Origin: Deltaproteobacteria bacterium
GTDB lineage: Bacteria > Desulfobacterota > Desulfobacteria > Desulfobacterales > C00003060
DNA length: 53,943 nt
NCBI GenBank assembly: GCA_019309815.1
Contig: JAFDFO010000005.1
Coordinates: forward strand, 1-53,943
Reading direction: 5' to 3'
Of this stretch, positions 2,610 to 45,835 are shown one piece after another. How positions within the stretch are numbered: position 1 is the first letter of the stretch; each line of letters opens with the position of its first letter. The notes under the pieces were generated by a model. It searched no databases. It saw only the letters and a list, made by a program, of their open reading frames with translations, and was not told the DNA's origin. The position numbers were made by a program, and so were the translations under genes.

Positions 2610-2613
2610 ATAT

Positions 2614-6843: not shown

Positions 6844-6867
6844 GGGCTTGCAGGAGTGATTCAAGAG

Positions 6868-6906: not shown

Positions 6907-6960
6907 TGGAGCAATGGAGTGATGGAGTACCAAAAAACTGGAGTATTGGAGTACTCCATT
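6907..6960. repeat. Octamer-periodic TGGA-N4 repeat array (opposite orientation to the 2898 array)
   Basis: The sequence reads TGGAgcaaTGGAgtgaTGGAgtaccaaaaaacTGGAgtatTGGAgtactccatt. Its reverse complement contains TCCATCACTCCA, as at 2908-2919. Confidence 0.7.
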
Positions 6961-6993
6961 TTTCCAGAGCCGCGTCTTTCGGACTTGGGTTGT

Positions 6994-8259: not shown

Positions 8260-8261
8260 CC

Positions 8262-9092: not shown

Positions 9093-9244
9093 GACATGTC
9101 TCCTTTCATTTGTGGGGTTGGCCCGTTCAGGCAGCACCCGCTGCAACTAATCCGCCAAACCCGTAATCCCGTCCTTTGTCATTCCGGCCACGGGCATTAA
9201 ATCCCATTTTCATCCCTGTATCACAAACAAGGCTGTGATACAAA

Positions 9245-10012: not shown

Positions 10013-10042
10013 TTCACTCTCCTTCTCAACTCTTTACCTTTG

Positions 10043-10813: not shown

Positions 10814-10858
10814 GGGCTATTTGCTCCCGGGGTTGACGGTTTCCAGAGTGCGGGCAGA

Positions 10859-11545
10859 CTACGCTTGTATCATGCCGACGATCCACATGGCATAAAAGAT
10901 GATAACCATGATCCCCCAGAAAATGGCGGCTCCGGATCTCAACCTCGCCGTTTGGCCGCCGGTCAAGCTGAGCATCAAGAAGGCTATTACAGATCCTATC
11001 CAACCGAGGAAGCCGACTTCAAGGATTAGCGTCCAAAAGACATCCGGTTCAGAACTTGCCTGCGGGGGCGAGGAGACCGCGGCAGCATCACTCAGTCGTC
11101 GAGCCTTCGAGCCCTGATCCATCAATGAGGCGATCTTTGCATCACACCTGTCGATCCAGTCTCTACCGGGGGTATAGAAACTCCTTGCCGCCAGGAATCC
11201 TCGTCTTATGGTTCGGGTAGCAATCAGGGCGAGCTGAATGTCGCCCTGTTGCTCGGCCCGGGTACATATTTCCCAGAGTCGTTGGGCCGATTTGTGCACG
11301 TAGGGATTAAAAGGCGTATACCAGTGGATGGACCTGTCGAAAAAAGTGATTGCCTTAATATGTTGGTGTTTCTTGAAGTATTCTTCTCCTTCCTGATACG
11401 CATGCATGGACACGAAGAACGCGCGTGTCCAGACCAGGGCCAACACGACAAGGATGAGGCCAATTGCAGCAGAGATCACCCTTGTGAAAGGTCTTTTCGA
11501 CAAACGGTTCCCGGGATTCTTCACGGCACTACCCATTTGTGACAT
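10859..11545 (-). CDS. Hypothetical membrane protein (N-terminal TM, soluble middle, two C-terminal TMs)
   Basis: 228-aa ORF with the SD AGGAGA upstream of the ATG at 11545. No recognisable family motif. Confidence 0.5.
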   Translation of the reverse strand: MSQMGSAVKNPGNRLSKRPFTRVISAAIGLILVVLALVWTRAFFVSMHAYQEGEEYFKKHQHIKAITFFDRSIHWYTPFNPYVHKSAQRLWEICTRAEQQGDIQLALIATRTIRRGFLAARSFYTPGRDWIDRCDAKIASLMDQGSKARRLSDAAAVSSPPQASSEPDVFWTLILEVGFLGWIGSVIAFLMLSLTGGQTARLRSGAAIFWGIMVIIFYAMWIVGMIQA

Positions 11546-24029: not shown

Positions 24030-24043
24030 ATGGTAGACCGGCT

Positions 24044-25952: not shown

Positions 25953-26246
25953 TTATGACACGATCCGTTTGTTTGTAAAAAGACGCGTGGTGAATGCTAG
26001 TATAATGGCAAGGCCAAGCGTACCATAGAAAGCAAGCAAAGCCATTTTGAAAAGAGGGCGTAGGACGATAGCCTTGAAGTTCACATTGGCACGATAAATG
26101 GGAACCTCTTTCCCATCAACGTAAGCACGCCACCCTTCATCAAATCCGTCAGACCAGTACAAGATCCCGTGTTTGTCTGTCACAACATCTATACTGAATG
26201 CGTCATGTTCATATTCCCCCACGGAATACGAAAACTGATGATTCAT
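25953..26246 (-). CDS. C-terminal fragment of YfhO-like paralogue A (split off by a 1-nt frameshift)
   Basis: The 97-aa ORF aligns to residues about 800-900 of the 38571..41315 product (FSYSV..GILYWSDGFDEGWRA.VDGKEVPIYRANVNFKAIVLR) but lacks KGVSHIDFVFKHA. ATGA overlap with 26243..28612. Confidence 0.6.
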   Translation of the reverse strand: MNHQFSYSVGEYEHDAFSIDVVTDKHGILYWSDGFDEGWRAYVDGKEVPIYRANVNFKAIVLRPLFKMALLAFYGTLGLAIILAFTTRLFTNKRIVS

Positions 26247-28612
26247 GCCCGGATCCCCTTTTTCACAAAGTCAGTTGTTGATGTCTCAAGCTCAGCAAGA
26301 GAGCCGTCCACGTCTTCTCTATTAACCAGAACCCATTTACTCAGCAATTGAATGGCATCCTCGGGACCTAATTTGTTCAGATATGCAGCCACCTCATTGT
26401 CTTCCAGGGCAATTATGCCTTGCTTGAATTCAAAGGGGGGCTTTTCAACACAGAACATTTCTCTCAGGGCCAACGGTGGGATGCCGGAATTAATGAGTTC
26501 AAAGTAGTTCCTGAGGAGTAGAAAACTGCTCCATCGTCTGATGCTGAGAGCCAGCGTAATATCATCCAAGGTATAGGGATAAGGGATTGACTGGTTTTGA
26601 TTAATGGCCATCACAGGGGAAAACACGTAAGGTTGCCGATAGACAAGAGAAAGATACCGGATAGATTGAGCAGTTCTGCTGAGAAGAGACAACGGGGCAA
26701 TTCTTCTATAATGAATGACTTCCGGACTTTGGGCGTCTGTTTTGATGCCATAAGCTTCCCGGGGATGTGTCTGCCCACGGTATAGATAGGCGGTTAGTGC
26801 GACATGGTCGGTCAGTTCCCTAACTACACTTGCTGAAAAAACAATCAGAATGAGAGCAACAATGTATCCCTTCTTTGACAGCTGCCTGTGCGTCCTTATC
26901 AGAAGAAATAGGCAAAGGGGAAGACCAAGTAGTAAAAAGCTCTTGCGAAGAAATTCTGCATCATCATTTTGACAGAATGTGAGGACAAAAGCAATGTGGC
27001 CGGCCACCAAGCCAGCAAATAACCCTTTGTCCCCCAGGTCATTCCGAAGAATCCAACCGATGAAGACCAGGAGGATGATAAGAAGGAACAGATAGTTGGT
27101 TTCAGGATACCTAAGCTGTGTCATCCAGTTCACAAGGGCAATCACGGATCCCGAAAACAGAACAAACGCAACAATGGTATGGAGATGCTGGGTGCCAAGC
27201 CTGTCGTCGATCAGCGTCTTCAGGGCACCCCCTTTCCGGACAGCATCTGCTGGAAAGAGAGAACTGTTCCACGATGAGAAAAGGTGATTGAATCCCAAAA
27301 CATAGAAGTACAAAACGGTAAATAGAAAGAAGAGCACAAAACCATGGGTGTGCCTTGTGACCCAGAGAGGCGGATAAATATAATAGAGTGTTCTATGCAG
27401 CCCGCCGGCTGGTCCCAGCATCAAAAGTCCAAAACCTGCGGCAATAACGAGCCATACGGTTTTGAGTTGGTGCCTTCCAACCACAAAACCAAGAATAGCA
27501 ATGGCCCAAGGCAACAACCCTATGTACATATAGGCTTCTGAAGGGGTTCCCCACATACTTTTGTTGCTGGGGCCTGAAATGTGCCGATTACGTTCAGGAT
27601 AGACGATCTGGATAAAGTCCCAGATGGATGAAGAAGTACCCGTGTGTGTTATCAAACTGTAGGGCATAAGAATACCATGGTCTTCCGGCAGCGAGGTTCC
27701 TTCGTATTGCTGTGGAGACCCTTTGGGCTCTTGTTTTTCGTAACCGGCGTCCATCATCCTCGCCGGGAATACGTATTTGTCCTTTTCCAGCATAACAAGG
27801 ATGTTTGGCAACATCATCGCAACTACAATGACAAGCGTGACAGCAAACTTGAAGACAAACTTGTCGCTTTTCAGCAGTCCCCTTACAAGGTCTCGGCAAA
27901 ACAGCAGAAGGCCAACGGAAAAGAAGAGGATGAAAACCCACATCCCCGAGGAATAATAAGATTGCCAGTTGACTCCGATCAGAGCTGCAAGAATAAACCA
28001 GTTATGCCAGCGATAATCCCTATGGTATGTGATGCGCAAAAGAAAATATATGATGTATGGCACATACAAAAACTGATAAACTGCAGCGGCTTGCCTGAAG
28101 GGACTGAACATGAATGAAAAGTATAATAGAATGGGTATCAGAGAAACTCGAATGAATATGTTTGCAGCTAATGTGCGGAACACAATGTAGACCCCGAACA
28201 CCATCACGATATTTTGAACAAAGTGCACCCAGTTATATAGCGACACAAGGTCATTGCTACCGAGATACTTCCCCACGTAGATAGTCAATAAAGTGATAGG
28301 CTCTAATAGTCTCAGATGTATGACTATGGGATAGAAAGGCTCACCCCCATGCGTGAATGGATTCCACAAGGGGAAATGACCATGGATAATGCTTTCGGCA
28401 AAGAACTGAAAAACCGGATATCCCCAGTAAAGGTGGTCGTGGATGAATGTGGTTTCATGTAAAACCAACATGGAGCGCAAGGTATATATGAGAAAACCTA
28501 TCCCCAATGCTCCCGCTACAATTTCTATAGACAAGAAACGTCTGGCCACAGGTCGGTGGGCCTCTGCCGATCTGGTGTTATTCCGAGTCTTGTCCGGGAG
28601 GTCGGTGCTCAT
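26243..28612 (-). CDS. YfhO-like GT-C membrane glycosyltransferase, paralogue A (truncated at the frameshift)
   Basis: HDHLYWGYPVFQFFAESIIHGHFPLWNPFTHGGEPFY (YfhO-type first loop). Near-identical N-terminal 220 aa to 38571..41315. Confidence 0.7.
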   Translation of the reverse strand: MSTDLPDKTRNNTRSAEAHRPVARRFLSIEIVAGALGIGFLIYTLRSMLVLHETTFIHDHLYWGYPVFQFFAESIIHGHFPLWNPFTHGGEPFYPIVIHLRLLEPITLLTIYVGKYLGSNDLVSLYNWVHFVQNIVMVFGVYIVFRTLAANIFIRVSLIPILLYFSFMFSPFRQAAAVYQFLYVPYIIYFLLRITYHRDYRWHNWFILAALIGVNWQSYYSSGMWVFILFFSVGLLLFCRDLVRGLLKSDKFVFKFAVTLVIVVAMMLPNILVMLEKDKYVFPARMMDAGYEKQEPKGSPQQYEGTSLPEDHGILMPYSLITHTGTSSSIWDFIQIVYPERNRHISGPSNKSMWGTPSEAYMYIGLLPWAIAILGFVVGRHQLKTVWLVIAAGFGLLMLGPAGGLHRTLYYIYPPLWVTRHTHGFVLFFLFTVLYFYVLGFNHLFSSWNSSLFPADAVRKGGALKTLIDDRLGTQHLHTIVAFVLFSGSVIALVNWMTQLRYPETNYLFLLIILLVFIGWILRNDLGDKGLFAGLVAGHIAFVLTFCQNDDAEFLRKSFLLLGLPLCLFLLIRTHRQLSKKGYIVALILIVFSASVVRELTDHVALTAYLYRGQTHPREAYGIKTDAQSPEVIHYRRIAPLSLLSRTAQSIRYLSLVYRQPYVFSPVMAINQNQSIPYPYTLDDITLALSIRRWSSFLLLRNYFELINSGIPPLALREMFCVEKPPFEFKQGIIALEDNEVAAYLNKLGPEDAIQLLSKWVLVNREDVDGSLAELETSTTDFVKKGIRA

Positions 28613-28624
28613 AAGAACCGCATC

Positions 28625-30043
28625 CTAGTAGCCCTTTCGATATGTCCAAAGATACTTGATGGTCTTAAGGTAGGTTAGTTTTCTCTCTTTGTTGTACCTT
28701 AGAAAGGTATTGACAAGGTAGATATAGAAGAAAAGGTGTTTTGAGCGAACGTTTTTGGCCAAGAACAGAAACAGGGGCTTGAGCTTCGGGAATATCAGGC
28801 ATAGATGGGCTACTTTATGTATGTTGGCAAGGATCTCTTTGTCTTCTCTGAGTAAAACGGATCCTCTTACAAAAGACTCCGGCAAATCATCAAAAGAGTA
28901 GTCTGGTTTCAGTAGATTTTTCTTTATGCAATATTCTGCTATGCGAGTTCCGGGAAAGGGAAGGAAAATGGCGGTGAACATATAGTTTGTGCCCATCCTG
29001 ATATTCAAGTCGATTGTGGATACAGCATCCTCAATCGTTTCATCTGGCAAGCAAAACATGTTTGAAGTCTGCAATTCAATACCTTTATTCTTCAAAACTG
29101 CAGAGCATCTCAGGAGATCCTGATTTGTGATGTTTTTGTTCAACACAGTTCTCCTTAGCCGTTCATTTCCTGTTTCAACTCCAAAACTCACTGTATGGCA
29201 TCCTGCTTCGGCCAACGCTTTTGCATGCCTTTCTTTGATGGTTTTAGCATGTCCGGTGCAGATAAACGGAACGTTGACCTCTGATTTGTACAGCTGACAG
29301 AATTCTTCCAGCCATTTCAGGCTGAATACAAACAGATCATCACAAAAGAAGAAGGTTGAAGATCCGTAAGAATTCAGACACTGTTTTATTTCTTCTATGA
29401 AGAACCTGGGGGACTTTCTTCGAATATATCTACCAGCAGTCTTGAAAATCTTCTTGAGAAAGCTGTTTGAACAGAAAGCACAGTCAAACGGACATCCTCT
29501 TGAAGACATGAATATCTTCTGGTCGAGGTTTCTGAGTTCTGAATATCGATTGTAATAGATGGCACGGTCTTCTTTAAATGAATCCAGGTTCGTGGGAAGG
29601 CGAGCCACGCCCTGCAGAGTCGGAACGCCGTTTTCATAGCAGCCCATTCCCTGAACACCTTTGGGAGACCCTTCACCCCGTTCAAGCCGGTCAATAAACG
29701 AAGGAAATGCAACTTCGCCCTCACCTTGGCAGACATAATCCACACCATCTAACTTGAGGACGTCCATCGGATACATTGTGGCATGAATGCCCCCAACAAC
29801 AATGGGTACCTGAGGCATAAGTTGCTTTATTTCTGGAGACATCTTCTTAAGCCATCGATGCTCGGTAGACATGACGGAAAAGCACACTAAATCAGGTTTC
29901 AGGCTTCTCAACTTCGAAGTGAAATCAGGCTCACTGGCACTGATCAAAACATCGGTTTCATGTCCTTGTTGCTTCAACACATCAGATAAAGACATGATTC
30001 CAAAATAGGGAAACAGCTGTTTCTGAACAAAACATATCTTCAT
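28625..30043 (-). CDS. B12-binding-domain radical SAM enzyme
   Basis: N-terminal B12-binding-like fold (MKICFVQKQLFPYFGIMSLSDVLKQQGHETDVL) and SSRGCPFDCAFC. Start set at ATG 30043, preceded by AAGGGGA. Confidence 0.8.
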   Translation of the reverse strand: MKICFVQKQLFPYFGIMSLSDVLKQQGHETDVLISASEPDFTSKLRSLKPDLVCFSVMSTEHRWLKKMSPEIKQLMPQVPIVVGGIHATMYPMDVLKLDGVDYVCQGEGEVAFPSFIDRLERGEGSPKGVQGMGCYENGVPTLQGVARLPTNLDSFKEDRAIYYNRYSELRNLDQKIFMSSRGCPFDCAFCSNSFLKKIFKTAGRYIRRKSPRFFIEEIKQCLNSYGSSTFFFCDDLFVFSLKWLEEFCQLYKSEVNVPFICTGHAKTIKERHAKALAEAGCHTVSFGVETGNERLRRTVLNKNITNQDLLRCSAVLKNKGIELQTSNMFCLPDETIEDAVSTIDLNIRMGTNYMFTAIFLPFPGTRIAEYCIKKNLLKPDYSFDDLPESFVRGSVLLREDKEILANIHKVAHLCLIFPKLKPLFLFLAKNVRSKHLFFYIYLVNTFLRYNKERKLTYLKTIKYLWTYRKGY

Positions 30044-30070
30044 CAAAATCCCCTTATTCGCACTGTGTGG

Positions 30071-30088
30071 CTTGCAAGGCAGAAGCCT
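30071..30088 (-). promoter_or_regulatory. Candidate sigma54 promoter (-24 GG / -12 TTGCA)
   Basis: The reverse strand reads aGGCTTCTGCCTTGCA with canonical GG-N10-GC spacing, about 30 nt upstream of the ATG at 30043. 8 of 11 consensus positions match. Confidence 0.3.
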
Positions 30089-30689
30089 TTTCCCGCAAAA
30101 ACGAGACCATCTTCCGCAGCTTGCTGTTGCGTGCTCGTTTATGCGCCACACGCACACCAAGGCCTGTGTTCAATCATCGGGTCAGGTGCGGGGAAATTGG
30201 GAGCAACCTGCGGCCTCAACGGCATCAACCCGAAAACGCGCCACTTGCATGTCGAATTCCTGACAATGTCTTTCAGAAGCCCCGCTTCCTGGCTAATGAT
30301 TGCAGCGCCGGATGAGGCATTGATATTCAATGGGCTTGCGTATTAGCAGAAATTATATATATAATATACAGAATCCATTCAGGTCAAGGCATCGTGATTC
30401 TGAAGGTGGAGCTGGCAAAAGCGTGTAAAATCAAACGTATACGAGAGCAGGGCCCCATATTCAGGTACCGCAATTCCGTTTCATTTCAATATGAATGTAA
30501 AGGAAAAGAGGCCTCGGTTTCCGGTGAGGCAACTTGTGGTCGCCATGTAGTCCACACAGAACAACACCATTGTACCATATTACGTGTTTTTCACTTCGTT
30601 CAAGGTTGCTTCACTGAACACCCTTGTGTCCTGCGATCCAAGAAGTCCATGGCGCTTGCTACCTGGAATGACGATTCTCACATAAGGGT

Positions 30690-31217
30690 TTGTCCATGAC
30701 TGTGCTATTCTACGGCTCCCTTCTCTTTGGACTGGGCCTTGTCGTTCACGTCGTCATATGGCGCGTCCACCTCCCCAAAAGGCAAGCCAAGGTCATATTT
30801 CTGTTGTTTGCGGGGTTCCTTTTTTGCGGGTCTTACATTCTCTGGAAATATCGCCACGGGTTGTCTATCCTCGGTTTTCATCCCCCAAGTGATTTGGCCC
30901 AATATTTGCAGTTTTGGATCTACTATGTTTCGCTCACTTTGGCATACATGATCACATATTCGGCCATTGAGGCAGACAGCCCATCTCTCATCATCATAAT
31001 GAGAATCCATGAAGCCGGGAGCTCCGGTTTGGCAAAAGAGAGCTTGGAGGGCGTTATGAACGATAGAATTCTCATAGAACCGAGACTGAAGGATTTGCTG
31101 GTTGACAAGATGGCAGATTTTCAGGAAGGGAAATACCGACTAACGAAGAAAGGCGTCCTGATTGCACGGCTTTTTACGTTTTATCGTGGCATAATAAAGG
31201 CTGGCAAGGGGGGTTAA
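30690..31217 (+). CDS. Membrane protein with three TM segments and a C-terminal winged-helix-like domain, paralogue 1
   Basis: 175 aa. The C-terminal part GLAKESLEGVMNDRILIEPRLKDLLVDKMADFQEGKYRLTKKG resembles a wHTH wing (Y-x-LT-x-KG). Confidence 0.6.
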   Translation: MSMTVLFYGSLLFGLGLVVHVVIWRVHLPKRQAKVIFLLFAGFLFCGSYILWKYRHGLSILGFHPPSDLAQYLQFWIYYVSLTLAYMITYSAIEADSPSLIIIMRIHEAGSSGLAKESLEGVMNDRILIEPRLKDLLVDKMADFQEGKYRLTKKGVLIARLFTFYRGIIKAGKGG

Positions 31218-31224
31218 ACGATCG

Positions 31225-31761
31225 GTGCCACTGTTTCATATTCACATTCTTTCACCACTTTTCGGCCTACTGACGAACGTCGTCGTTCAATTATCACGAT
31301 GCAGGCATGGCAACAACCGGGGTTTGTTACGATCGGTCTTCGAGGGGTTCGTCAGTGGATATGCGACCGTGCTGGCGATTGAAGTAGCCTACTGTGTTTC
31401 AACGAAGGGGGATCTGGTGGAGTGTGTGGGCCAGATAACCCTCAGTACGATAACGTACGTCGCTTTAGGATACGGTTACTTCCATTTCATCAACTTGGGG
31501 GAGACTGCTCGGCGAGTTCGTATTCTTAGGGAGCTCTGGGAGTCTCAGGATGGTCTTTCTGTTGATGAGCTTCTGATGCGGTACAGTGCTTCGGAGATAT
31601 TTGGCATTCGCCTTCAGCGAATGATCAACAATGAACAGCTTGAGCTGCGCAACGGCAGATATTACATCGGAAAGTCCGTTATGCTGTATATGGCCAAAGC
31701 AATGGTGATGATGAAGTTGATTCTTCTCAAAAAACGAGGTGAATTCGAACAACAGCTGTAG
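31225..31761 (+). CDS. Membrane protein with a C-terminal winged-helix-like domain, paralogue 2
   Basis: 178 aa with the same architecture as 30690..31217 (GLSVDELLMRYSASEIFGIRLQRMINNEQLELRNGRYYIGK). Confidence 0.6.
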   Translation: MPLFHIHILSPLFGLLTNVVVQLSRCRHGNNRGLLRSVFEGFVSGYATVLAIEVAYCVSTKGDLVECVGQITLSTITYVALGYGYFHFINLGETARRVRILRELWESQDGLSVDELLMRYSASEIFGIRLQRMINNEQLELRNGRYYIGKSVMLYMAKAMVMMKLILLKKRGEFEQQL

Positions 31762-31839
31762 TGGGTGCGCTACTTGAAGTGGGAGTTTGCGACAAACTGC
31801 CCTTTGGCTTAACAGCAAATTTTGGAAGAGAGTTGGCCA

Positions 31840-33459
31840 ATGATTCTAATCAGTCCTAGCGGCGATCGACCCAAGAAACTGGGTGTTTTTGCCAAGTATG
31901 TTCCGTTATCAGTCCCTTATGGCATAGGTGCCTTAGCAGGGTATTTGCATCATAAAGGCAAAAAGGCGGAAGTCCTGGACGAGGAAATCGAACCAGCCAA
32001 TCCGGACGTGTTTCGATCAAAAACAAAGGATCTTACTCCCCCATACATTTTTGGGATTTCCTCTCTTACGGCAGGTATAGCAAGAAGCATTGAGATCGCA
32101 AGGACTATCAAGAGTATTCCCGATTTCTCGGATGCAAAGGTCATCTTTGGCGGGATTCATCCCACTGTTCTGCCAGAAGACGTTCTACAATCCGGATACG
32201 CCGATATTGTAGTCAGAGGTGAGGGAGAGAAGGCTCTCGAAATACTCTATGACAGAATAAAAGATGGGAAAGACTACTCTGATGTAGAAGGAATCTCCTT
32301 CCTTAGCAATGGAAACACCATACACAATGATCGCGCAGAGCTGGTGGACTTGGATACTCTTCCTTCCTTTCCTTATGACATGTTTTACCGATATTCGTCG
32401 AGATATGCTTTAGGTTTTATCACGAGCTCACGGGGGTGCCCCTATGATTGCATCTTCTGCAGCCAGCGCAGCATTTCAGGAAAGTTCTATCGTTTCAGAT
32501 CGCCGGAGACTGTTGTGGAAGAAATCGAGTATCTTTTCAAATATAGGGGCCAGAGGCATCTGACATTTCAGGATGACAATTTTCTCCCTGTCAAGGACAG
32601 GACCATGAAACTGTGCGAGCTCATTATTAGTAGGTTTGGAGATAGTATTAGCTTTGATTGCCAGGCCCGTGCTGATAACGTTGATGACGAGGTCCTGGCC
32701 GTGATGAAACAGTCCGGTTGCCGGCTAATCCATGTTGGGATAGAGAGTGCCAGTGACCGGTTACTTTCCTTGGTTCGGAAAAGGGAAACCCTCCAGCAGA
32801 TTATTGATGGGGTTCGTCTAATCCAAAAACATGGGATTCAGGTTTCAGGTACTTTTATTCTGGGGTTTCCGACCGAGACGTCGGAAGATAGAAAAGCTGC
32901 CTATGAGTTGGCAAAAGAATTGGATCTTGCTTTTGTCAGGTTCAACAATGCTACACCCTATCCAGGAACCAAGTTGTACGAAATGGCAAAAACTCAGGGT
33001 CGGTTCCTGCCAGGTGATAATTGGGAAAATCTCAACGCATGCGGTTCGTTGACTGAGAATCCCTTTAGGCGAAACAAACTCTCCTTTGTCCCTGACGGAG
33101 TGAGTGAGGGGGAGCTGAGAAATGATATTATCAAATACAACATGTTCTTTTCACTGAGACCCAAGAGAGTGTTTCGTCTGGTGTTCAATAGATTCGGACC
33201 TGCTGGGTGGTTTGAACTCCCAGAGAATTGGTTTCTCAAACCTGGAGAGTGGTATTCCTTATTAAGATTTTCAGCCAAAATTGGAATAAACTTCCTTGTT
33301 ATGTTGGCAGGGATTCTGAAATACAAGCTGAGGTCACTAAACGATCAAGGCATGCCACCCCAGCAGTCCGCTGAATATGCAGCTTCAGCCCGCAACACAT
33401 ATCTACGCAAAAAAAGGCAACACATCCCTGGTACGTTTCAACAGCAGAGTTGGAGATGA
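31840..33459 (+). CDS. B12-binding-domain radical SAM enzyme
   Basis: SSRGCPYDCIFC and an N-terminal B12-binding-like domain. ATG 31840 is preferred over the TTG at 31822. Confidence 0.8.
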   Translation: MILISPSGDRPKKLGVFAKYVPLSVPYGIGALAGYLHHKGKKAEVLDEEIEPANPDVFRSKTKDLTPPYIFGISSLTAGIARSIEIARTIKSIPDFSDAKVIFGGIHPTVLPEDVLQSGYADIVVRGEGEKALEILYDRIKDGKDYSDVEGISFLSNGNTIHNDRAELVDLDTLPSFPYDMFYRYSSRYALGFITSSRGCPYDCIFCSQRSISGKFYRFRSPETVVEEIEYLFKYRGQRHLTFQDDNFLPVKDRTMKLCELIISRFGDSISFDCQARADNVDDEVLAVMKQSGCRLIHVGIESASDRLLSLVRKRETLQQIIDGVRLIQKHGIQVSGTFILGFPTETSEDRKAAYELAKELDLAFVRFNNATPYPGTKLYEMAKTQGRFLPGDNWENLNACGSLTENPFRRNKLSFVPDGVSEGELRNDIIKYNMFFSLRPKRVFRLVFNRFGPAGWFELPENWFLKPGEWYSLLRFSAKIGINFLVMLAGILKYKLRSLNDQGMPPQQSAEYAASARNTYLRKKRQHIPGTFQQQSWR

Positions 33460-34847
33460 GAGTATTACTAGTTAGGGCAAGACCCACCAAGGTGGAGAAT
33501 ACGAGACTTCCGAAAAGTCTATCATCGGAGGTGGGATATGTTATGCCGCTCGGGCTTGCCTCCATCGCTGCATATTTGCGTGGAAAAGGCGTTTCAGTGG
33601 GTATCATAGATGCTGAGGCAGAAGAACTTTCAATTGATCAAGTCAAGAGGAAGATGGCGAGAATCGGGCCGGACATAGTCGGCATAACCAGTATGACGCC
33701 AACAGTTCATGATGACCTTGCGGTGGCCAGGGCATCTCATGAACTCGGAATCAAGGTTGTCATGGGTGGCCCCCAAATAAATGCTATGCCCGAAGAGACC
33801 ATGCAGTTTAAGTTCGTCGATTTTGCCGTGCGTGGCGAAGGCGAATATCCCATGTTGAAGATAATTCAGGCGATTGACAATGAATTGCCCTTTAGTGATG
33901 TTCCTGGGATTGTCTACAGGGACGAGGATGGCAGGGTTATAATGACGCCTCCATTCATTCATGATGATCTTGATGAGTTGCCGCCTCCAGCAAGGGACCT
34001 TTTACCCCATGAGCGTTATGCGGCCATCATTGCCAGGGGCAGACTGACCACGCTTTGCCCGGGGAGAGGGTGTCCTTTCAGGTGTGGCTTCTGCTTTAAG
34101 CAGCCATCGGACCGAAAGATTCGATTTAGAAGTCCGGAAGTGGTTGCAGATGAAATGGAAGAAGTCATAGACAGGTATGGGATACAAGAAATCAATTTTG
34201 TTTCGGATACATTCACCCTCAAGAAGAGTTTTGTGGAGGGGTTATGTGAAGAGTTGCTGAGTAGAGGCACAAAAGTGTCGTGGATTGCTCCTACAAGAGT
34301 TGATTCTGTCACGCCTGCATTACTTGGACTGATGAAAAAGGCGGGCTGTAGAAGTTTGAGGTTCGGCATCGAGAGTGGTTCGGAAAAGATACTAAGACTC
34401 ATGAACAAGGATACCAATAAGGAATATACCCTTCAAGTCTTCAGGTGGGCAAAGGAGGTGGGGCTTGAGACCTTTGCATACCTTATAATAGGGTACTTGC
34501 ATGAAACAGAGAAAGAAATAAAAGAGACTCTGGCTTTTGTTAAAGAACTAAAACCGGATTTACTCATGTATAATGCTGCGACCCCCCTTCCCAAAACAAG
34601 ATTGTTCGAGCAAGCTGTGGAGGCAGGGATCGTCGAGAAGGACTATTGGGGGAAGTTCCTGTTGGATGAAAACTATCCGAGAATCCCCTATTTAATGAAG
34701 GATACACAGAAGTGGATAGATAAAGCTTATCGCGACTTCTTCTTTTCGCCGCGATTTCTGTTCAAGAAGATGATAGAATTCCGAGGAAAGAATATTAGGA
34801 ATTATTTCAAGGCAGCCAGAGGAATAGTTGGACTCAGGAAACAATGA
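33456..34847 (+). CDS. B12-binding-domain radical SAM enzyme
   Basis: PGRGCPFRCGFC. ATG 33456 forms an ATGA overlap with the upstream stop. Confidence 0.8.
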   Translation: MRVLLVRARPTKVENTRLPKSLSSEVGYVMPLGLASIAAYLRGKGVSVGIIDAEAEELSIDQVKRKMARIGPDIVGITSMTPTVHDDLAVARASHELGIKVVMGGPQINAMPEETMQFKFVDFAVRGEGEYPMLKIIQAIDNELPFSDVPGIVYRDEDGRVIMTPPFIHDDLDELPPPARDLLPHERYAAIIARGRLTTLCPGRGCPFRCGFCFKQPSDRKIRFRSPEVVADEMEEVIDRYGIQEINFVSDTFTLKKSFVEGLCEELLSRGTKVSWIAPTRVDSVTPALLGLMKKAGCRSLRFGIESGSEKILRLMNKDTNKEYTLQVFRWAKEVGLETFAYLIIGYLHETEKEIKETLAFVKELKPDLLMYNAATPLPKTRLFEQAVEAGIVEKDYWGKFLLDENYPRIPYLMKDTQKWIDKAYRDFFFSPRFLFKKMIEFRGKNIRNYFKAARGIVGLRKQ

Positions 34848-35389
34848 GTATTACCCAGAAGAAACGTGCCAAGATAATTGCAGATGCTTACAGGAATTGG
34901 GGCGCAGAAGGGAAGAAGGCCCTGGATGTTGGGTGTGGAAATGGTGTGGTATCAGATGTCTTGGTCGCAGAGCTTGGATTGAACCTGTGTGGCACTGACA
35001 TAATTGACTATCGAACGACGAACATTCCCTTTAAACAAATGGAAAATCCAGCTGAACTTCCTTTCGATGACCTGTCCTTTGATTTTGTCATGTTCAACGA
35101 TGTTTTGCACCATTCGGAACACATAGAATCACTGATTCTGGAAGGAAAAAGGGTTGGACACGCACTCCTGATGTTTGAAGACAAACAGAGTTTTCTATTA
35201 ACGATCGTTGACGTCGTGTTAAATCATATTTATTCCTCGAGGATGCCGGTTCCCCTAAACTTCAAAACCAGAGAAGAGTGGTGCTTGCTGTTTGACAAGC
35301 TCGGTCTTGAGTGGGAGGTGGGGGAGGTCTCGTATCCGTTTTGGTATCCCTTTCAGCATTTTGCCTTCAGATTGGTCAAGCGAATATGA
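34844..35389 (+). CDS. Class I SAM-dependent methyltransferase
   Basis: ALDVGCGNGV motif I, 181 aa, ATGA overlaps at both ends. Confidence 0.75.
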   Translation: MSITQKKRAKIIADAYRNWGAEGKKALDVGCGNGVVSDVLVAELGLNLCGTDIIDYRTTNIPFKQMENPAELPFDDLSFDFVMFNDVLHHSEHIESLILEGKRVGHALLMFEDKQSFLLTIVDVVLNHIYSSRMPVPLNFKTREEWCLLFDKLGLEWEVGEVSYPFWYPFQHFAFRLVKRI

Positions 35390-37551
35390 ACGTGGACCAA
35401 GATAATCCCAAGGGTATTATGCGATTGCTAAGAAGGAACTGGGAGTATTTTGCCCTGGTCTTCTTGTTTCTTTGGATGGTAGCTTCTCTTGCACCTTTGC
35501 CCTTTGTTCAATGTTCAGACGGTTACCATGTCTGGTTACCAAGGCTCTCCTATGCAGTGAGAGAGATGTTAAGCGGGCAAATACCTTTTTGGAACGAATT
35601 CCAGTTCTGTGGAACATTACTGCTGGCGGACGGCAATACTAACATACTCAATCCCATGTCAGTATTTTACGTTTTCTTTAGTTTGGCATGGGCATATACG
35701 TATGGTGTGCTATTGCTGTTGGGTGTTTCAATAGCTGGTTCATGGCTTTATTTTCGGGAAAGAGATTTGTCGAAGACGGCTTCACTGGTTGGAACCCTCG
35801 GATATACTCTGAGTGGTCAGGTTGTTTTTTGGAGCCTTTATCATGGTATGAATCTGTGTTTGGCTCTTTTTCCTCTCACTCTGTTTGCTTTTAGAAGACT
35901 GGAGAAAATAAACGCACAGCGCGACCAACATGACAAGGACCGTGCTGTGAAAATTGGGTGGAGGTTGCTTGCTTTTTTCTTGATGTTCTTTTCTGCTTTA
36001 GGTGGATTCATTCAGTTCGCTTTTATTTCGGCCGCGTCCGTGTTCGTTGAGGGAATTGAGCAATGGTCTGTTGGTGGAGTGAAAAGAGCTCTGAAAAGCA
36101 GGGGGCTCACTGTATTGTTGGCAGTGGCTTCGGCATCGGTCGTCGTTATACCGATAATTGAAGCAAGTATTTTCAGCCATCGCAAACTGGTACCGTATTT
36201 TAAAGGCCTTGTGGCTGATAGATTTTCTTTATGGTCAATGATGTTCTGGGGCAGTTCCTTTGACGGGTGTGACTACCCAAATTACTTCTACTACATTGGC
36301 GTGGTTATCATTGCTCTGTCTGTTTTTGCAATAAGAAAGCATTTCAGGAAAGCAGTTTCCGATCCTTTTATTGTTTATTCATGTATTTTCCCGGCTGTTT
36401 TATTGGCTGTTTACCTGGGAGTTTTGCCAAAGACTTTTCAATTTGGGATCGATTCAGATCCATGGCGTGGGATGTTTGTTTTTGCTTTGGCGTTGTCAAT
36501 ACTTGGGGCAGCCGGGACCGATAAGTATGTCAGGAAGGTAATGAACGAGAAGAGATTAGTGTTACCTCCTTTTGAATTGATACTTGCCGGCCTCATTTCG
36601 CTTGGCATATATGGTGCTACGCCGTATCATCCCGATAAAATGAACATCGGGTTCTTGGGCATATTGATACTCTCAGGCGTTGTTTTGTCCATCGTACTGA
36701 AGAAGGAAGAACCCAGGGTTAAAGCTGTTGTGTCGTGTGTTTGGCTTGTTCTGTTACTGGTTGCCAACAGCTTTGTACCCGCTGGATTGTACCTTGCGCA
36801 TAACGTTATACGTAAACCGGTGGTGGACCCGTGGCAAATAGAAGGGTTGCCGGCTGCAATGCTTTCTGGTGAGGGAAGGTTTTTGACGATAGGGTATTAT
36901 ACTGGAGAGCTCGAAGACTGGGGTATATTCAACAGGATGCGAGCAATAGGTGGTTACGGATCTTTCTTCCCGAGGTCAGTCTTTACGAGAATGAGAGATG
37001 AGGGACTTCTCCCATCCAGCTTCCATGCGGCCACGCATTACCTAAACAATAATAATACTGACCCCAACATCCTTGCTAGGTACGGGGTCTTGTACCTCAT
37101 AGAAAGGAAATCGGCTAATGGCTCAAGGGTCGGTTGGGAACTTGCTAAAGCAGTTCCAGGCGGTGTGATATACATGAACCCAAGATACGTAGGGCGTGCT
37201 TACCTTGTGAATGAAGAGGGCAACATTCTTAAAGGCGCTAGGCTGGTGGAAAATACGAATTCATATGTGAGAATCGTTGTTGAAGCAAATGCAGGTGATA
37301 CACTTGTCCTGGCTGACTCGTGGTTTCCAGGCTGGAGATGTTTTGATAATGGCGAAAGGGTCGAGGGCTTCAATGCTGACGGATTCAGGGGCTATCGAAT
37401 ACAAGCTTCGGGACGTCACGAGATTGAATGGATCTACAGGTCATCATCATTTTTCGTGGGGCTTGTGATTTCTTCGGTCAGCTTCATCGCCTTTTTGGCA
37501 TTGGTTATCTGGGAAGTGCGGTCCAATAAGAAAAGGAGGATTGGTCGGTAG
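35386..37551 (+). CDS. YfhO-like GT-C membrane glycosyltransferase
   Basis: SDGYHVWLPRLSYAVREMLSGQIPFWNEFQFCG first loop. C-terminal ADSWFPGWRCFDNGERVEG...GRHEIEWIY beta-domain and a terminal TM. Start at ATG 35386. Confidence 0.7.
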   Translation: MNVDQDNPKGIMRLLRRNWEYFALVFLFLWMVASLAPLPFVQCSDGYHVWLPRLSYAVREMLSGQIPFWNEFQFCGTLLLADGNTNILNPMSVFYVFFSLAWAYTYGVLLLLGVSIAGSWLYFRERDLSKTASLVGTLGYTLSGQVVFWSLYHGMNLCLALFPLTLFAFRRLEKINAQRDQHDKDRAVKIGWRLLAFFLMFFSALGGFIQFAFISAASVFVEGIEQWSVGGVKRALKSRGLTVLLAVASASVVVIPIIEASIFSHRKLVPYFKGLVADRFSLWSMMFWGSSFDGCDYPNYFYYIGVVIIALSVFAIRKHFRKAVSDPFIVYSCIFPAVLLAVYLGVLPKTFQFGIDSDPWRGMFVFALALSILGAAGTDKYVRKVMNEKRLVLPPFELILAGLISLGIYGATPYHPDKMNIGFLGILILSGVVLSIVLKKEEPRVKAVVSCVWLVLLLVANSFVPAGLYLAHNVIRKPVVDPWQIEGLPAAMLSGEGRFLTIGYYTGELEDWGIFNRMRAIGGYGSFFPRSVFTRMRDEGLLPSSFHAATHYLNNNNTDPNILARYGVLYLIERKSANGSRVGWELAKAVPGGVIYMNPRYVGRAYLVNEEGNILKGARLVENTNSYVRIVVEANAGDTLVLADSWFPGWRCFDNGERVEGFNADGFRGYRIQASGRHEIEWIYRSSSFFVGLVISSVSFIAFLALVIWEVRSNKKRRIGR

Positions 37552-37599
37552 GTGGGATTGGGCCGAAAGTCTCAGAAACACCCTGGCCAAGAAATTTGT

Positions 37600-38352
37600 A
37601 TGTTCAGAGACAGCAAAGTAATCGTGGTCATGCCGGCGTACAATGCGGCCAAGACACTGCGCAAGACCTATGAAGAGGTGATGGCTCAGGAGATAGTGGA
37701 CCTGATCGTTGTGGTTGACGACGGGAGCATGGATGAGACTGTCTCTATTGCCAAGACTTTACAGCACACGATTGTCTACACCCATGACAGGAACAGAGGC
37801 TATGGTGCCAACCAAAAATCATGTTACAAACTGGCCCTGGAACAGGGTGCCGACATTATCATCATGGTCCATCCGGACTATCAATATACCCCGAAGCTGA
37901 TCCCATCCATGGCGGGCATGATCGGAAATGGTCTTCATCCATGTGTGCTGGGTTCCAGAATTCTCGGGGGGTATGCCCTGAAGGGCGGAATGCCTATTTG
38001 GAAATATGTATCGAATCGATTTCTTACCTTTGTCGAAAACATGTTTCTGGGGGCCAAGCTCTCAGAATACCATACGGGATACAGGGCCTTTTCCAGGGAA
38101 CTGATACAGCGCTTACCACTTCAAGTGAATTCTGATGATTTTCTGTTTGACAATCAGATGCTCGCACAGATCCTGTGGTTCGGTTATACGGTTGCCGAGA
38201 TCAGCTGTCCAACCAAGTATACTGCGGAGTCTTCAACGATTAATTTATATCGGAGCATTAAGTATGGTTTTGGATGTTTGTTCACGGGCCTGATATTTCG
38301 TCTCGCTAAAATGAAGATCATGAATTCGAAGTTGTTCCCTGACGCTAGGTAG
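37600..38352 (+). CDS. GT2 glycosyltransferase (CsbB/GtrB-like)
   Basis: VIVVMPAYNAAKTL ... VVVDDGSMDET ... HPDYQY. Start set at ATG 37600. Confidence 0.8.
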   Translation: MFRDSKVIVVMPAYNAAKTLRKTYEEVMAQEIVDLIVVVDDGSMDETVSIAKTLQHTIVYTHDRNRGYGANQKSCYKLALEQGADIIIMVHPDYQYTPKLIPSMAGMIGNGLHPCVLGSRILGGYALKGGMPIWKYVSNRFLTFVENMFLGAKLSEYHTGYRAFSRELIQRLPLQVNSDDFLFDNQMLAQILWFGYTVAEISCPTKYTAESSTINLYRSIKYGFGCLFTGLIFRLAKMKIMNSKLFPDAR

Positions 38353-38555
38353 TTACCCACTCAAGTTTCGCACCCATTGTGTCAAGCTGTTATCCGACAG
38401 AAACTATGATGGAGACCCTCCCACATATCGCGTTTCGGAAAACAACACGACCTCTCAGTTTCACGCTATGCATTGAGGCTAAACGCCTGGCAGTTTTGAA
38501 CTTTGTGCGAAATAGAGGTGCGAAAGTTGGGCAACTTATTTCTGTGAAACAACAC

Positions 38556-41315
38556 TAGGATATGGTTTTTATGAGCATCGACCTGCCGGACAAGACAGAG
38601 AATAACACCGGATGGGCAAAGGCTGGCCGACCTGTGGCCGGACGTTTCTTGTTGATAGAAATTGTGGCGGGTGTATTGGGAATAGGTCTTCTCATATATA
38701 CCTTGCGCTCCTTGTTGGTTTTACACGAAACCGCATTCATCCACGACCACCTTTACTGGGGGTATCCGATTTTCCAATTCTTCGCCGAAAGCATTATCCA
38801 TGGTCATTTCCCCTTATGGAATCCATTCACTCATGGGGGTGAACCTTTTTATCCCATAGTGGTACACCTTCGACTGTTAGAGCCCATTACGTTGTTGACT
38901 ATCTACGTGGGGAAATATCTCGGGATCAATGACCTTGTGTCACTATATAACTGGGTGCACTTTGTTCAGAATATCGTGATGGTGTTCGGGGTCTACATTG
39001 TGTTCCGCACATTGGCTGCGAATATATTCATTCGAGTTTCTTTGATACCCATCTTATTATACTTTTCATTTATGTTCAGTCCGTTCAGGCAGGCTGCTGC
39101 AGTTTATCAGTTTTTGTATGTGCCATACATCATGTATTTTCTTTTGCGCATCACGTACCATAGGGATTATCGTTGGCATAACTGGCTTCTTCTTGCAGCC
39201 CTGATCGGGGTCAACTGGCAATCTTATTATTCCTCCGGGATATGGGTTTTGTTCTTGTTCTTTTCCTTAGGTCTTTTGCTATTTCACAGGGATCTCTTGA
39301 AGCAACTACTAAGGAGCGACAAGTTCATCTTCAAGTTTGCAGTGGCACTGGCAATTGTATGTGCCATGATGCTGCCTAATATCGTTGTTCTGCTGGAAAA
39401 AGATAAATACGTATTCCCCGCAAGGATGAAAGATCCTGGATATCAGGAAAAGACTCCCGTGCAGACGGGAGGGACCCAACAATGGGAAGGGACCGCTTTA
39501 TCTGAAGACCATGGTATTCTAATGCCCTACAGCTTAATAACGCATACGGGCACATTTTCATCCGTCTGGGACTTTGTTCAGACCATCTACCCAGAACCCA
39601 ATCCATTTATCTCAGGCCCCGAAGTTGAGAGTGAATCAGGGTCAGAAGCCTACATGTATATAGGCATGTTGCCCTGGATCATTGCTGTCTTAGGCTTTGT
39701 GATTGGGAGCCACAAACTAAAATCCCTGTGGTTGCTCATTGCCGCGGGATTTGGCCTCTTGATGCTGGGACCCGCCGGCGGTCTGCATAGAATACTTTAT
39801 TATGTTTATCCTCCTCTCTGGTTCACCAGGCATACGCATGGTTTTGTGCTCTTTTTTCTATTTACCGTTTTGTACTTCTACGTTTTAGGGTTTAATCACA
39901 TTTTTTACTCCTGGAACACTTCTCTCTTTCCAACAGATGCTGTCAGAAAGCGCGGTATCCTGAAACTTCTGATCAATGATAAACTTGGCACCCGGCATCT
40001 TCATAGCATCGTAGCATTTATTCTGTTTTCGGGATCCATTGTTTTGCTCGTGTATTGGATGACAAGGCTTCGCTATCCTGAAACGCACTATTTATTTCTT
40101 CTTATCATCTTGCTTGTTATTGTTGGTTTTATTTTTCGAAATGACCTGGGAAAAAGAGGAATATTCGCCAGCTTAGTTGTTGGTCAGATTTGTTTTGTTG
40201 CCGTGTTCTGCAAAGGTGGTAGTACAGAGTTTCTCACAAAAGGCGTTTTACTGCTTGGTGCTCCGGTTGGCCTATTCCTCCTGGTTAAAACACAAGACAC
40301 CTTGCGAAAGAAGAGGTATATCATCGCTCTGTTGTTGATTATGCTTGGGGGAAGCTTTGTGGGCGATTTGCGTGGCCATCTGGCACTGATCTCCTATTTA
40401 TATCGTGGCCAGCAACATCCAAAGGACGCTTTTAACATCAAGACAGATGTGCACGAGCCCGGGTTTAATCAATACAGAAGTGCTGCCCCGTTCTCTCTTC
40501 TTAGCGCAACCCGCGAATCTGTGAGGTACCTTTCGCTAATTTATCGTCAGCCTTATGTGTTCTCCCCGGTTTTGGCAATTGAAGGGAATCCTGAGAGTAA
40601 ACATCCAGAAACTTTAAATGACTTTAGAACAGCTCTCAACTTCAGAAGATGGACCAGTTTCTTGCTACTCAGAAACTACTTTGCACTTATCAACTCCGGC
40701 ATTCCGCCGTTAGCCATGAAAGAAATGTTCTGTGTCGGGAAGCCTGTGTTTCAATTCAAACAAGGCATAATCGCCATGAGAGACAATGAGGTTGCAGCAT
40801 ATCTTAACAAATTAGGTCCCGAGGATGCCATTCAATTGCTGAGCAAATGGGTTCTGATCAACAGAGAAGACGTGGATGCTTCCCTCGCCGGTTTTGAGAT
40901 GTCTCAGATCCAAAGTGAAACAGTGGTCGATAATGTTTCTCCTGCAAAGGGAGACCTGGATGTGAATGGTCAATTTTCGTATTCGGTAAAGAAATATGAA
41001 CCCAACTCATTCAGTATTGACGTGGCTACGGACACACACGGGATCTTGTACTGGTCCGATGGATTCGATGAAGGGTGGCGTGCTTGCGTTGATGGGAAAG
41101 AGGTCCCCATTTATCGTGCCAATGTGAACTTCAAGGCTATTGTGCTCCGGAAAGGGGTCAGTCATATTGACTTCGTTTTTAAGCACGCTCCGTTCAAAAT
41201 GGCATTGCTTGTTTTCTACGGGGTCCTTATACTTGCTATTATATTAGCCATAACAACATGGTTTTATGAAAAAGAAACAAATCTCATTACGAGGAAGGGC
41301 AGGAATGGCTTATAA
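38556..41315 (+). repeat. Inverted duplication, arm B (partner 25953..28627)
   Basis: See arm A. Confidence 0.85.
38571..41315 (+). CDS. YfhO-like GT-C membrane glycosyltransferase, paralogue B (intact)
   Basis: Full-length counterpart of 26243..28612 plus 25953..26246. Start at ATG 38571 matches the start of copy A (MSxDLPDKT), with AGGA 10 nt upstream in both. Confidence 0.75.
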   Translation: MSIDLPDKTENNTGWAKAGRPVAGRFLLIEIVAGVLGIGLLIYTLRSLLVLHETAFIHDHLYWGYPIFQFFAESIIHGHFPLWNPFTHGGEPFYPIVVHLRLLEPITLLTIYVGKYLGINDLVSLYNWVHFVQNIVMVFGVYIVFRTLAANIFIRVSLIPILLYFSFMFSPFRQAAAVYQFLYVPYIMYFLLRITYHRDYRWHNWLLLAALIGVNWQSYYSSGIWVLFLFFSLGLLLFHRDLLKQLLRSDKFIFKFAVALAIVCAMMLPNIVVLLEKDKYVFPARMKDPGYQEKTPVQTGGTQQWEGTALSEDHGILMPYSLITHTGTFSSVWDFVQTIYPEPNPFISGPEVESESGSEAYMYIGMLPWIIAVLGFVIGSHKLKSLWLLIAAGFGLLMLGPAGGLHRILYYVYPPLWFTRHTHGFVLFFLFTVLYFYVLGFNHIFYSWNTSLFPTDAVRKRGILKLLINDKLGTRHLHSIVAFILFSGSIVLLVYWMTRLRYPETHYLFLLIILLVIVGFIFRNDLGKRGIFASLVVGQICFVAVFCKGGSTEFLTKGVLLLGAPVGLFLLVKTQDTLRKKRYIIALLLIMLGGSFVGDLRGHLALISYLYRGQQHPKDAFNIKTDVHEPGFNQYRSAAPFSLLSATRESVRYLSLIYRQPYVFSPVLAIEGNPESKHPETLNDFRTALNFRRWTSFLLLRNYFALINSGIPPLAMKEMFCVGKPVFQFKQGIIAMRDNEVAAYLNKLGPEDAIQLLSKWVLINREDVDASLAGFEMSQIQSETVVDNVSPAKGDLDVNGQFSYSVKKYEPNSFSIDVATDTHGILYWSDGFDEGWRACVDGKEVPIYRANVNFKAIVLRKGVSHIDFVFKHAPFKMALLVFYGVLILAIILAITTWFYEKETNLITRKGRNGL

Positions 41316-41468
41316 GGTATTTCAAGAGAAATCTAATTGCTCGTTTGTTACAGGCGGCGAACTTGCTGTGTAACAGTGAGCGGTGACTCCGGGCGAGAGC
41401 CCGGTGCCTCTCACATACACGCTTTGTGAATACGCAGCTATTTACATAGAAGGGCGTCCTCGATCAGG

Positions 41469-43499: not shown

Positions 43500-43544
43500 C
43501 AGCACTTGCTGGGCAAGCCCCTCTCTCCTCTTTTGTGTTGTTTC

Positions 43545-45494: not shown

Positions 45495-45835
45495 ATCAAG
45501 GGAGGTAAATCAATGTTGACTCGTCAGGACAGACCAGTTTTGTCTGACTGGTTTTTTTGAACTGGACCGCCAGTACCGGATAGAACAGCGGGTCAACGAT
45601 AGTCTGAAAACGAGCTTTCACGACGTCTTCCCCGAATTCGAGATGCCTCCAGAGACAGGGTCGGCTGAGACAAAACAGAAGAAGTAGACAGCAGAGTTCA
45701 CCGGAAAGAGCTTCACGAATGGATGGAGTCGTTTGGTCTTCAGGCTCAACTTGAATCTACCGTCATTTTCTCGTCATGGCTGTGCCGATTCCCGGTATTC
45801 GCCCAAGATGCTTGTCTGTGCTCTCGTCTCAGCCC

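Follow-up and report, generated by a model that had tools for sequence, protein, structure and literature searches.

Inverted, mosaic YfhO-like paralogues bracketing a radical-SAM and glycosylation cassette in uncultured Desulfobacterales: conversion patches and a probable cassette inversion

Introduction

In Salmonella enterica, gene conversion between the inverse duplicate genes tufA and tufB is coupled to inversion of the interval between them (Abdulkarim & Hughes 1996; Hughes 2000; PMC5485169). The tuf genes, separated by 762 kb, share 99% identity from end to end, and their recombination was shown experimentally (PMC5485169). Here we describe a comparable arrangement in an uncultured deltaproteobacterium of the Desulfobacterales, on the 53,943-nucleotide (nt) contig JAFDFO010000005.1 of assembly GCA_019309815.1, the whole of which is called the window below. 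Two paralogues of a YfhO-like, putative GT-C glycosyltransferase gene, copies A and B, stand in inverted orientation as the two arms of a locus that encloses a cassette of radical-SAM and glycosylation genes. The likeness to tufA/tufB lies in inverse paralogues, apparent general homologous recombination, conversion tracts, a crossover that would invert the interval, and concerted evolution. The locus differs in that identity between the copies is mosaic (58-95%) and in their spacing of 9.9 kb, which is taken up by an operon cassette of related function. Where tufA and tufB encode core translation factors, the genes here are for envelope enzymes that evolve fast, and recombination is inferred from comparisons.

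The sap locus of Campylobacter fetus reportedly undergoes nested DNA inversion between sapA homologues. The 5' regions of these homologues are said to be essentially identical, inversion to be frequent and phenotypically selected, a single promoter within the invertible segment to determine which homologue is transcribed, and the homologues to number up to 8-9. Judged by these accounts, both loci have opposed homologues whose conserved 5' regions of ~600 nt face an invertible segment of several kb, and in both, exchange within the conserved 5' regions would yield chimeric genes for products of surface structures. In contrast to sap, the arms described here are ~90% identical, only two copies are present, both cassette ends read outward, and the three contigs of the window's population are consistent with one orientation.

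YfhO and PMT_2 enzymes work with a GT2 enzyme that loads a sugar on undecaprenyl phosphate (PMC8035078). The known variation of gtr operons has an epigenetic basis (Dam/OxyR) and does not involve recombination (PMC2909390). The present locus resembles the CsbB/GtcA/YfhO and GtrABC systems, which decorate envelope polymers outside the cytoplasmic membrane, in having a GT2 gene, putatively of the polyprenyl-phosphate-sugar type, beside genes for multi-transmembrane, putative GT-C enzymes of the YfhO and PMT_2 kinds. Teichoic acids are the substrates of the YfhO proteins characterised so far, all of them from Firmicutes, whereas the host of this locus is a Gram-negative-type deltaproteobacterium.

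Results

Two inverted arms with mosaic identity

Arm A (25953..28629, minus strand) holds copy A as two open reading frames (ORFs), and its homology to arm B begins at 28629. Arm B (38554..41315, plus strand) holds an intact copy of 914 amino acids (aa) starting at the ATG at 38571; an in-frame ATG is also present at 38562. A repeat search revealed five collinear inverted-repeat blocks, of which the first (27741-28629/38554-39442) measures 889 nt at 87% identity and the last (26059-26265/40943-41149) has 83% identity. The gene in each arm is ~2.75 kb long, and both 5' ends point into the enclosed 9,924 nt (28630..38553). Homology starts with CTAGGAT in both arms, and in arm A this heptamer includes the TAG stop codon of the upstream radical-SAM gene. 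An earlier note on this DNA had described the two copies as aligned end to end, inverted and with their 5' ends inward, and had placed the start of homology at a common CTAGGA upstream of both start codons; both descriptions are borne out. The antisense ORFs 28443..28628 and 38555..38740, which it listed as conserved, are present with 61 aa each and are a mere by-product of the similarity at DNA level.

Nucleotide identity along the arms was determined in 100-nt windows, a profile that the earlier note had proposed, and it is non-uniform and mosaic. It amounts to 83-95% across the first ~650 nt and to about 59-80% beyond, with local peaks at B 39750-39850 (88%), 40750 (90%) and 41050 (88%). 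The high-identity 5' segment (38554..39215, plus strand; partner in A 28629-27970) corresponds in the protein to the N-terminal tail and to the first transmembrane helices with their loop, including the invariant HDH and WNP motifs. In the protein alignment a 68-aa identical run was found, as were a diverged middle and all three identical blocks near the 3' end, as the earlier note had read them. Its count of 5 differences between LVLHET and RWHNW is exact, and the length of that stretch is 157 aa instead of the ~165 aa given. At nucleotide level even the best-conserved part of the arms reaches only ~90% identity; no perfect match exceeds 44 nt, the next longest being 38, 38, 35 and 32 nt.

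Silent sites follow the same pattern. The proportion of synonymous differences (pS, Nei-Gojobori method, NG86) ranged from 0.15 to 0.53 in windows within codons 1-220, which corresponds to a synonymous divergence (dS) of about 0.2-0.9, mostly 0.2-0.5, and from 0.62 to 0.86, which is saturated, in codons 220-382. Fourfold degenerate sites differed at 22/81 positions (27%) in codons 1-215 and at 86/183 (47%) downstream (Fisher p=0.003), and a max-chi-square permutation test on the fourfold sites gave p=0.012. Because silent-site divergence is uneven along the arms too, the mosaic goes beyond protein constraint. The window's own arms have undergone no recent exchange, since they are ~90% identical at best, have perfect runs of at most 44 nt and differ at 27% of the fourfold sites even in the conserved part; the last exchange would be about as old as the split of the sampled lineages.

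Opposite orientation and a chimeric gene in a related lineage

Usable context was obtained from five related lineages or contigs (L004, L001, L021, L005 and L002); a scan of genome contigs gave a single locus, identical to L002, the metagenome scan otherwise gave mostly distant relatives (46-49%) and short fragments, and contigs L016-L020 were uninformative on orientation. The order of the window was found in L004 (~100% identical), L001 and L021, in which the cassette's right half is followed by the B-position gene and by the flanking PMT_2-like gene of 676 aa (PMT676), and in L005, which carries the left half, an intact A-position gene of 906 aa and the A flank. The window, L004 and L022, a contig of a second metagenome-assembled genome (MAG) from the window's population (GCA_019307425.1), are all consistent with one orientation.

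Contig L002, from the Desulfobacterales MAG_328_bin-12, has a different order: rSAM545(-), 178(-), 173(-), rSAM472(+), YfhO914(+), PMT676(+), TPR(-), YdjC(-), where rSAM denotes radical SAM. By blastn, its positions 2-6452 match the reverse complement of the window from 32745 to 26295 at 89.6%, and positions 4118-11203 match window 38554-45634 at 89.5%. In this contig the cassette meets the B-side flank with its A-side end, so that it lies in the opposite orientation relative to that flank, the arrangement that a flipped cassette would be expected to give.

The YfhO gene of L002 was painted with the 616 sites at which copies A and B of the window differ. It is of A-type from the start to about B 39360 and of B-type from there to the end, which amounts to ~0.8 kb of A-type 5' and 1.9 kb of B-type 3' sequence. 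Just before the switch the gene is 93-95% identical to A and 73-78% to B, and through most of the remainder it is 87-93% identical to B and 59-73% to A; small internal patches of the other type are also present. The switch falls into a conserved block (39362..39428, plus strand; partner in A about 27821-27755) encoding MLPNI.VMLEKDKYVFPARM, which we regard as the putative crossover zone. The contig contains no N, and its two halves are equally diverged from the window.

The comparison of synteny suggested in the earlier note thus yielded both a chimera and the opposite orientation. The note had predicted that inversion between the arms would create chimeric YfhO genes and swap the intact and defective 3' ends. 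The product of such an inversion is found in L002; the swap of 3' ends does not follow, because a crossover in the 5' part merely gives the defective 3' end a new 5' partner and operon, and the defect is then neither repaired nor swapped.

Conversion patches and conflicting segment groupings

The A-position gene of L005 carries a B-type patch at about 39050-39365 (90-98% to B) and is of A-type elsewhere. Its B to A switch falls in the same conserved block as the A to B switch of L002. L021 showed an A-type patch at about 39700-39900. In L024, a contig from another sample, A-type sequence at 39180-39350 is followed by B-type at 39358-39420 and again by A-type at 40250-40500; this contig was read except for its last 4.3 kb, where the second arm is expected.

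Two further observations concern L024. A tblastn match to the window's YfhO starts at 9665, the gene being called only from 10001 (805 aa), so its 5' end may be interrupted; and its downstream flank matches neither flank of the window.

Groupings of the sequences changed along the gene. In the segment 39370-40700 two clades were found, one with window A and L005 and the other with window B, L001, L002 and L021, with identities of 84-93% within and 67-75% between them. In the segment 39060-39355 the sequences were regrouped as window A with L002 (91%) and window B with L005 (95%), and the segment 38571-39050 had no A/B structure, with 86-94% identity throughout. The pairwise homoplasy index (PHI) of six sequences was 0.240 against 0.301 +/- 0.0035 in permuted data (p<=0.001). 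Uneven silent sites, the PHI result, conflicting groupings and the patchwise painting together support the proposal of the earlier note that repeated gene conversion produced the mosaic.

A double reciprocal inversion (flip and flip back) was also considered as the source of the L005 patch; it needed L021 as the partner of L005, and this did not hold. L005 and L021 are different strains of one sample, both covering window 33226-35060 (at 92% and 98.7%, respectively), and for this patch conversion and double inversion are therefore indistinguishable.

The same architecture in a distant lineage

The ENA contig scaffold_7414 (L023 + L006; 24,840 nt) carries an inverted YfhO pair with the 5' ends inward around a cassette of ~18.8 kb, in a lineage only 67-69% identical to the window in protein. 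Its cassette starts with the same radical-SAM gene and small ORFs. The arms of this contig share tracts of 283 nt and 383 nt that are 100% identical and lie in the 3' half, on a background of 65-90%, which indicates recent conversion. The cassette additionally contains genes for a GHMP kinase, an aminotransferase and a nucleotidyltransferase, as well as an IS200-like Y1_Tnp fragment.

The radical-SAM protein next to arm A (window 28625-30160) is 95.6% identical in L023 (8547-9986) and L018 (1514-2953), while the YfhO proteins there reach only 66-72% by one tally and 66-80% by another. By this difference, the arm genes evolve much faster than the adjoining radical-SAM gene.

Broken copies of the arm genes

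Copy A of the window is split into a main ORF of 789 aa (26243..28612, minus strand), which spans the transmembrane domain and a portion of the periplasmic one, and a 3' remnant of 97 aa (25953..26246, minus strand), which encodes the beta-sandwich and the last transmembrane helix and overlaps the upstream ORF by ATGA. Contig L022 (positions 2-2353) differs from the window by 1 substitution in ~2.2 kb and reads through; it has 25 nt after window 26266 and 36 nt after 26062 without counterpart in the window. The 25-nt deletion shifts the frame, ends the main ORF early and splits the gene into 789 + 97 aa, while the 36-nt deletion is in frame. Since the nearly identical L022 has neither deletion, the defect of copy A is a strain-level polymorphism; in the window's genome copy A is being lost through the two deletions.

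In the AlphaFold model of B, the site of the 25-nt deletion corresponds to residues 788-799, the sole disordered linker of the periplasmic part, and the 36-nt deletion removes 12 residues adjoining the last strand of the C-terminal beta-sandwich. With the deletion in a predicted disordered linker and the ATGA stop-start overlap, a two-polypeptide form of copy A may be conceivable. The B-position gene was found broken in L021 (5416-8020) by a 107-nt deletion (B 39015-39121 missing) that leaves ORFs of 164 + 635 aa; the methyltransferase gene of L021 is also split (127 + 72 aa).

Family and predicted fold of the arm proteins

Copy B matched Pfam PF09586 with 32.8 bits (cut-off 28.5) over its last 77 residues only. 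The 789-aa ORF of copy A had no match to this family and the 97-aa remnant scored 22.2 bits, below the cut-off; most homologues have a precomputed PF09586 match. The homologues are restricted to uncultured Deltaproteobacteria/Desulfobacterales and a few other phyla. The AlphaFold2 (AF2) model of B (predicted local distance difference test, pLDDT, 87.6; predicted TM-score, pTM, 0.90) consists of a helical transmembrane domain (20-612), a periplasmic alpha/beta and beta-sandwich part (613-870) and a terminal transmembrane helix. D59 of the HDH motif is nearly invariant, and the best-conserved stretch, with residues invariant across 51 homologues, would according to the model encode the catalytic transmembrane module. 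A sequence search of the PDB with the arm protein gave no match, and exact-sequence look-ups of the window's A and B proteins were likewise empty. The top Foldseek matches in the PDB include the GT-C enzymes STT3 (6s7t_A), AftD (6w98) and ArnT (5f15) with probabilities of 0.92-0.96, E values of only 0.03-0.1 and TM-scores <=0.42.

The cassette, its flanks and the glycosylation island

The genes of the cassette form two divergent strings. The leftward string is a B12-binding radical-SAM gene (28625..30160, minus strand, 511 aa) that reads outward straight into copy A, its TAG stop lying within the first bases of the arm. The intergenic region 30161..30393 separates it from the rightward string and is a presumed bidirectional promoter region. 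The rightward string consists of three small ORFs of 101, 175 and 178 aa without family match (30394..31761, plus strand), two B12-binding radical-SAM genes of 545 and 465 aa (31822..34847, plus strand), a SAM-dependent methyltransferase gene of 181 aa (34844..35389, plus strand), a gene for a third, distant YfhO-like multi-transmembrane protein (35311..37551, plus strand; true start probably downstream of 35389) and a GT2 glycosyltransferase gene (37552..38352, plus strand; PF00535, E=4e-23), followed by a 200-nt spacer and copy B. In NCBIfam the GT2 protein came closest to the polyprenyl-phosphate sugar synthases AglJ and PpgS and to a dolichyl-phosphate hexose transferase, with scores that fell far short of the curated cut-offs in every case.

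Hydrophobic segments (1-2 each) are present near the N terminus of the 175-aa and 178-aa proteins, which are kept in related contigs, while the 101-aa ORF has none. This last ORF (30394-30699) is Cys/His-rich, with a GTG start and no family match, and may not represent a genuine gene, although gene calling lists it in L005. The small ORFs of the cassette gave no Pfam or NCBIfam match to a GtrA/GtcA-type small flippase, and in having no GtrA-type flippase recognised among the cassette ORFs the locus differs from GtrABC. By analogy with the systems named above, the adjacent GT2 would fit a multi-component glycosylation scheme. Scans for consensus promoters and terminators remained at or below the level of shuffled controls, promoter sites being fewer than in those controls. 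Domain searches found no recombinase domain in any substantial ORF of the 54-kb contig, in agreement with the earlier note, which had recorded no site-specific recombinase.

Downstream of copy A lie two PMT_2-like GT-C genes of 627 and 624 aa (22155..25927, minus strand), and downstream of copy B a single one of 676 aa, PMT676 (41469..43499, plus strand). These flanking genes were considered as part of the duplication and rejected, the A-side and B-side proteins giving no blastp match to each other. The intergenic region upstream of B (38353..38553, plus strand) has no homology to the A side in the window. Its equivalent in L001 (8222-8525), the spacer before the B-position gene, shares ~76-78% similarity with the radical-SAM gene of the A side, at that gene's 3' end. 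Because the L001 spacer still resembles that 3' end, these alignments suggest that the original duplication took in the end of the radical-SAM gene; in the window only its TAG stop within CTAGGAT is left at the arm edge.

The locus is part of an envelope-glycosylation island of ~40 kb, from about 12 kb to 53 kb (window 12169-53479), which is unusually rich in GT-C-type genes. Four PMT_2-like genes start at 12169, 22155, 24044 and 41469, four YfhO-like genes at 26243, 35311, 38571 and 51176, and a GT87 gene at 49791. The island also holds three GT2 genes and six radical-SAM genes, four of them B12-binding and two of the SPASM kind, along with methyltransferase genes and heptose-type sugar-nucleotide genes. 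The best NCBIfam matches of the four B12-binding radical-SAM genes are of lipid/hopanoid type (HpnJ, ladderane-type), far below the cut-offs. A segment of ~1.65 kb with a 560-aa gene (no Pfam match) is missing at window 45634-45750 and present between the TPR and YdjC genes in L002 (11203-12851) and L021 (12335-14017).

Discussion

The data are probably best explained by old inverted YfhO-like paralogues between which repeated general homologous recombination, arm to arm, gave rise to conversion patches and to at least one inversion of the cassette. Non-crossover events (gene conversion) would shift patches between the copies and keep the first ~650-800 nt, which would encode the catalytic transmembrane module, ~90% alike, and the acceptor-side and periplasmic parts would drift to about 58-80%. 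At least one crossover in the conserved block near B 39.36-39.43 kb would have flipped the whole cassette in the sister lineage represented by L002, swapping which downstream GT-C genes follow which cassette operon. Such a flip would alter the protein little in its 5' part, the 5' modules differing at few residues; it would re-associate the 3' module (periplasmic, presumably acceptor-binding) and the PMT_2-like genes with the other cassette operon and would leave a 3' defect unrepaired. The exchange would be of the general, RecA-type kind, and the direction and order of the events, the effects on transcription and the glycan substrate can be put forward only conditionally.

Several points weigh against this explanation. 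The nonsynonymous divergence (dN) is only 0.00-0.03 in codons 41-220, so that part of the 5' conservation certainly reflects purifying selection. The sole inverted example is one short-read MAG contig, L002, for which an assembly mis-join through the repeat keeps some residual probability. The reciprocal junction, in which GT2 would be followed by a gene with B-type 5' and A-type 3' parts and then by the 627-aa PMT_2-like gene, was not recovered, the other contigs of MAG_328_bin-12 not having been searched. The crossover also sits in a stretch over which identity between the arms of the window is no more than about 70-80%, which implies exchange between more similar ancestors or within the short conserved block.

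If uneven purifying selection on independently evolving old paralogues had produced the mosaic without any recombination, the best-conserved stretch would be expected to be the catalytic transmembrane module, as the model has it, with residues invariant in 51 homologues and dN near zero. Selection on the protein does not account for heterogeneous divergence at silent sites, for the PHI result and the conflicting groupings of segments, or for paralogues with 100% identical nucleotide tracts in the ENA contig, and we regard this possibility as very improbable. Alternatively, conversion might have taken place alone, without a true inversion, and L002 might be an assembly chimera that jumps between the arms of a genome with the window's orientation. 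The short-read origin of L002, the position of its switch point within a conserved block, the L022 contig that breaks inside an arm, a sign that assemblers struggle in this region, and the missing reciprocal junction would all agree with this. The junction block of ~65 nt, however, is shorter than a read, so that read threading should resolve it; L002 contains no N and shows the same divergence from the window in either half (89.6% and 89.5% identity); the small patches of opposite type within it are in keeping with a genuine history of recombination; and L024, from an independent sample, has the same A to B transition at the same place. A mis-join is disfavoured on these grounds, and conversion without inversion is considered unlikely.

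Inversion itself might be of a different kind. An inverton acting at short sites at the arm boundaries, with a serine or tyrosine recombinase encoded elsewhere, would accord with the abrupt start of homology at the same CTAGGAT in both arms; but the substantial ORFs of the 54-kb contig encode no recombinase domain, the breakpoint in L002 lies ~0.8 kb inside the gene and not at the arm boundary, and the arms are of gene length, not short inverted repeats, which leaves this mechanism hardly any probability. More is to be said for a programmed and frequent switch of the sap kind, in which the cassette would flip within the population and vary the 3' module of the GT-C enzyme, the downstream genes and the surface glycan. 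The layout is sap-like, with inverted homologues whose conserved 5' regions face a segment with outward-reading genes; both orientations occur among related lineages; a distant lineage keeps the architecture and has perfect tracts of 283-383 nt, which suffice for efficient RecA exchange; and which of the two copies is broken varies between strains. Against such a switch, the arms of the window are a poor substrate, for the reasons given above for the lack of recent exchange, and the window, L004 and L022 are all consistent with one orientation. Since the genes at either end of the cassette point outward, a flip would not have to toggle anything, the promoter scan was uninformative, and there are two copies only and no repertoire of silent cassettes. 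A programmed switch is accordingly unlikely. The earlier note had proposed a recombinational device for surface-glycan variation, and no sign of a working device was found in this genome, where the arms are at best ~90% alike with perfect runs of no more than 44 nt.

Old paralogues recombining from arm to arm remain the preferred explanation, and at this level the locus adds a documented example of already known genome dynamics, conversion and inversion between inverted paralogues. It is a clean natural example of the two as alternative outcomes of one exchange, and it comes from uncultured environmental bacteria and from envelope glycosyltransferases rather than housekeeping genes. It is also a warning for annotation and binning, as such loci contain chimeric genes and pseudogenes that alternate between the copies, and their contigs may break within an arm.

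For the family, the comparisons point to a GT-C clade that evolves by module swapping, in which the catalytic 5' part would be kept homogeneous while the periplasmic parts diverge, and this bears on the specificity of glycan modification. It is a rather slim prospect that the locus is a conserved, recombinase-free invertible module of uncultured Desulfobacterales which relies on homologous recombination by the host to re-assort the catalytic 5' module, the acceptor-recognising 3' module and the downstream GT-C genes between the two operons, and so diversifies the envelope glycan across the population, for example against phages. If it were, the sap system of C. fetus would have its counterpart among glycosyltransferases; and if both orientations coexist in populations, it would constitute a new recombinational route to surface-glycan variation.

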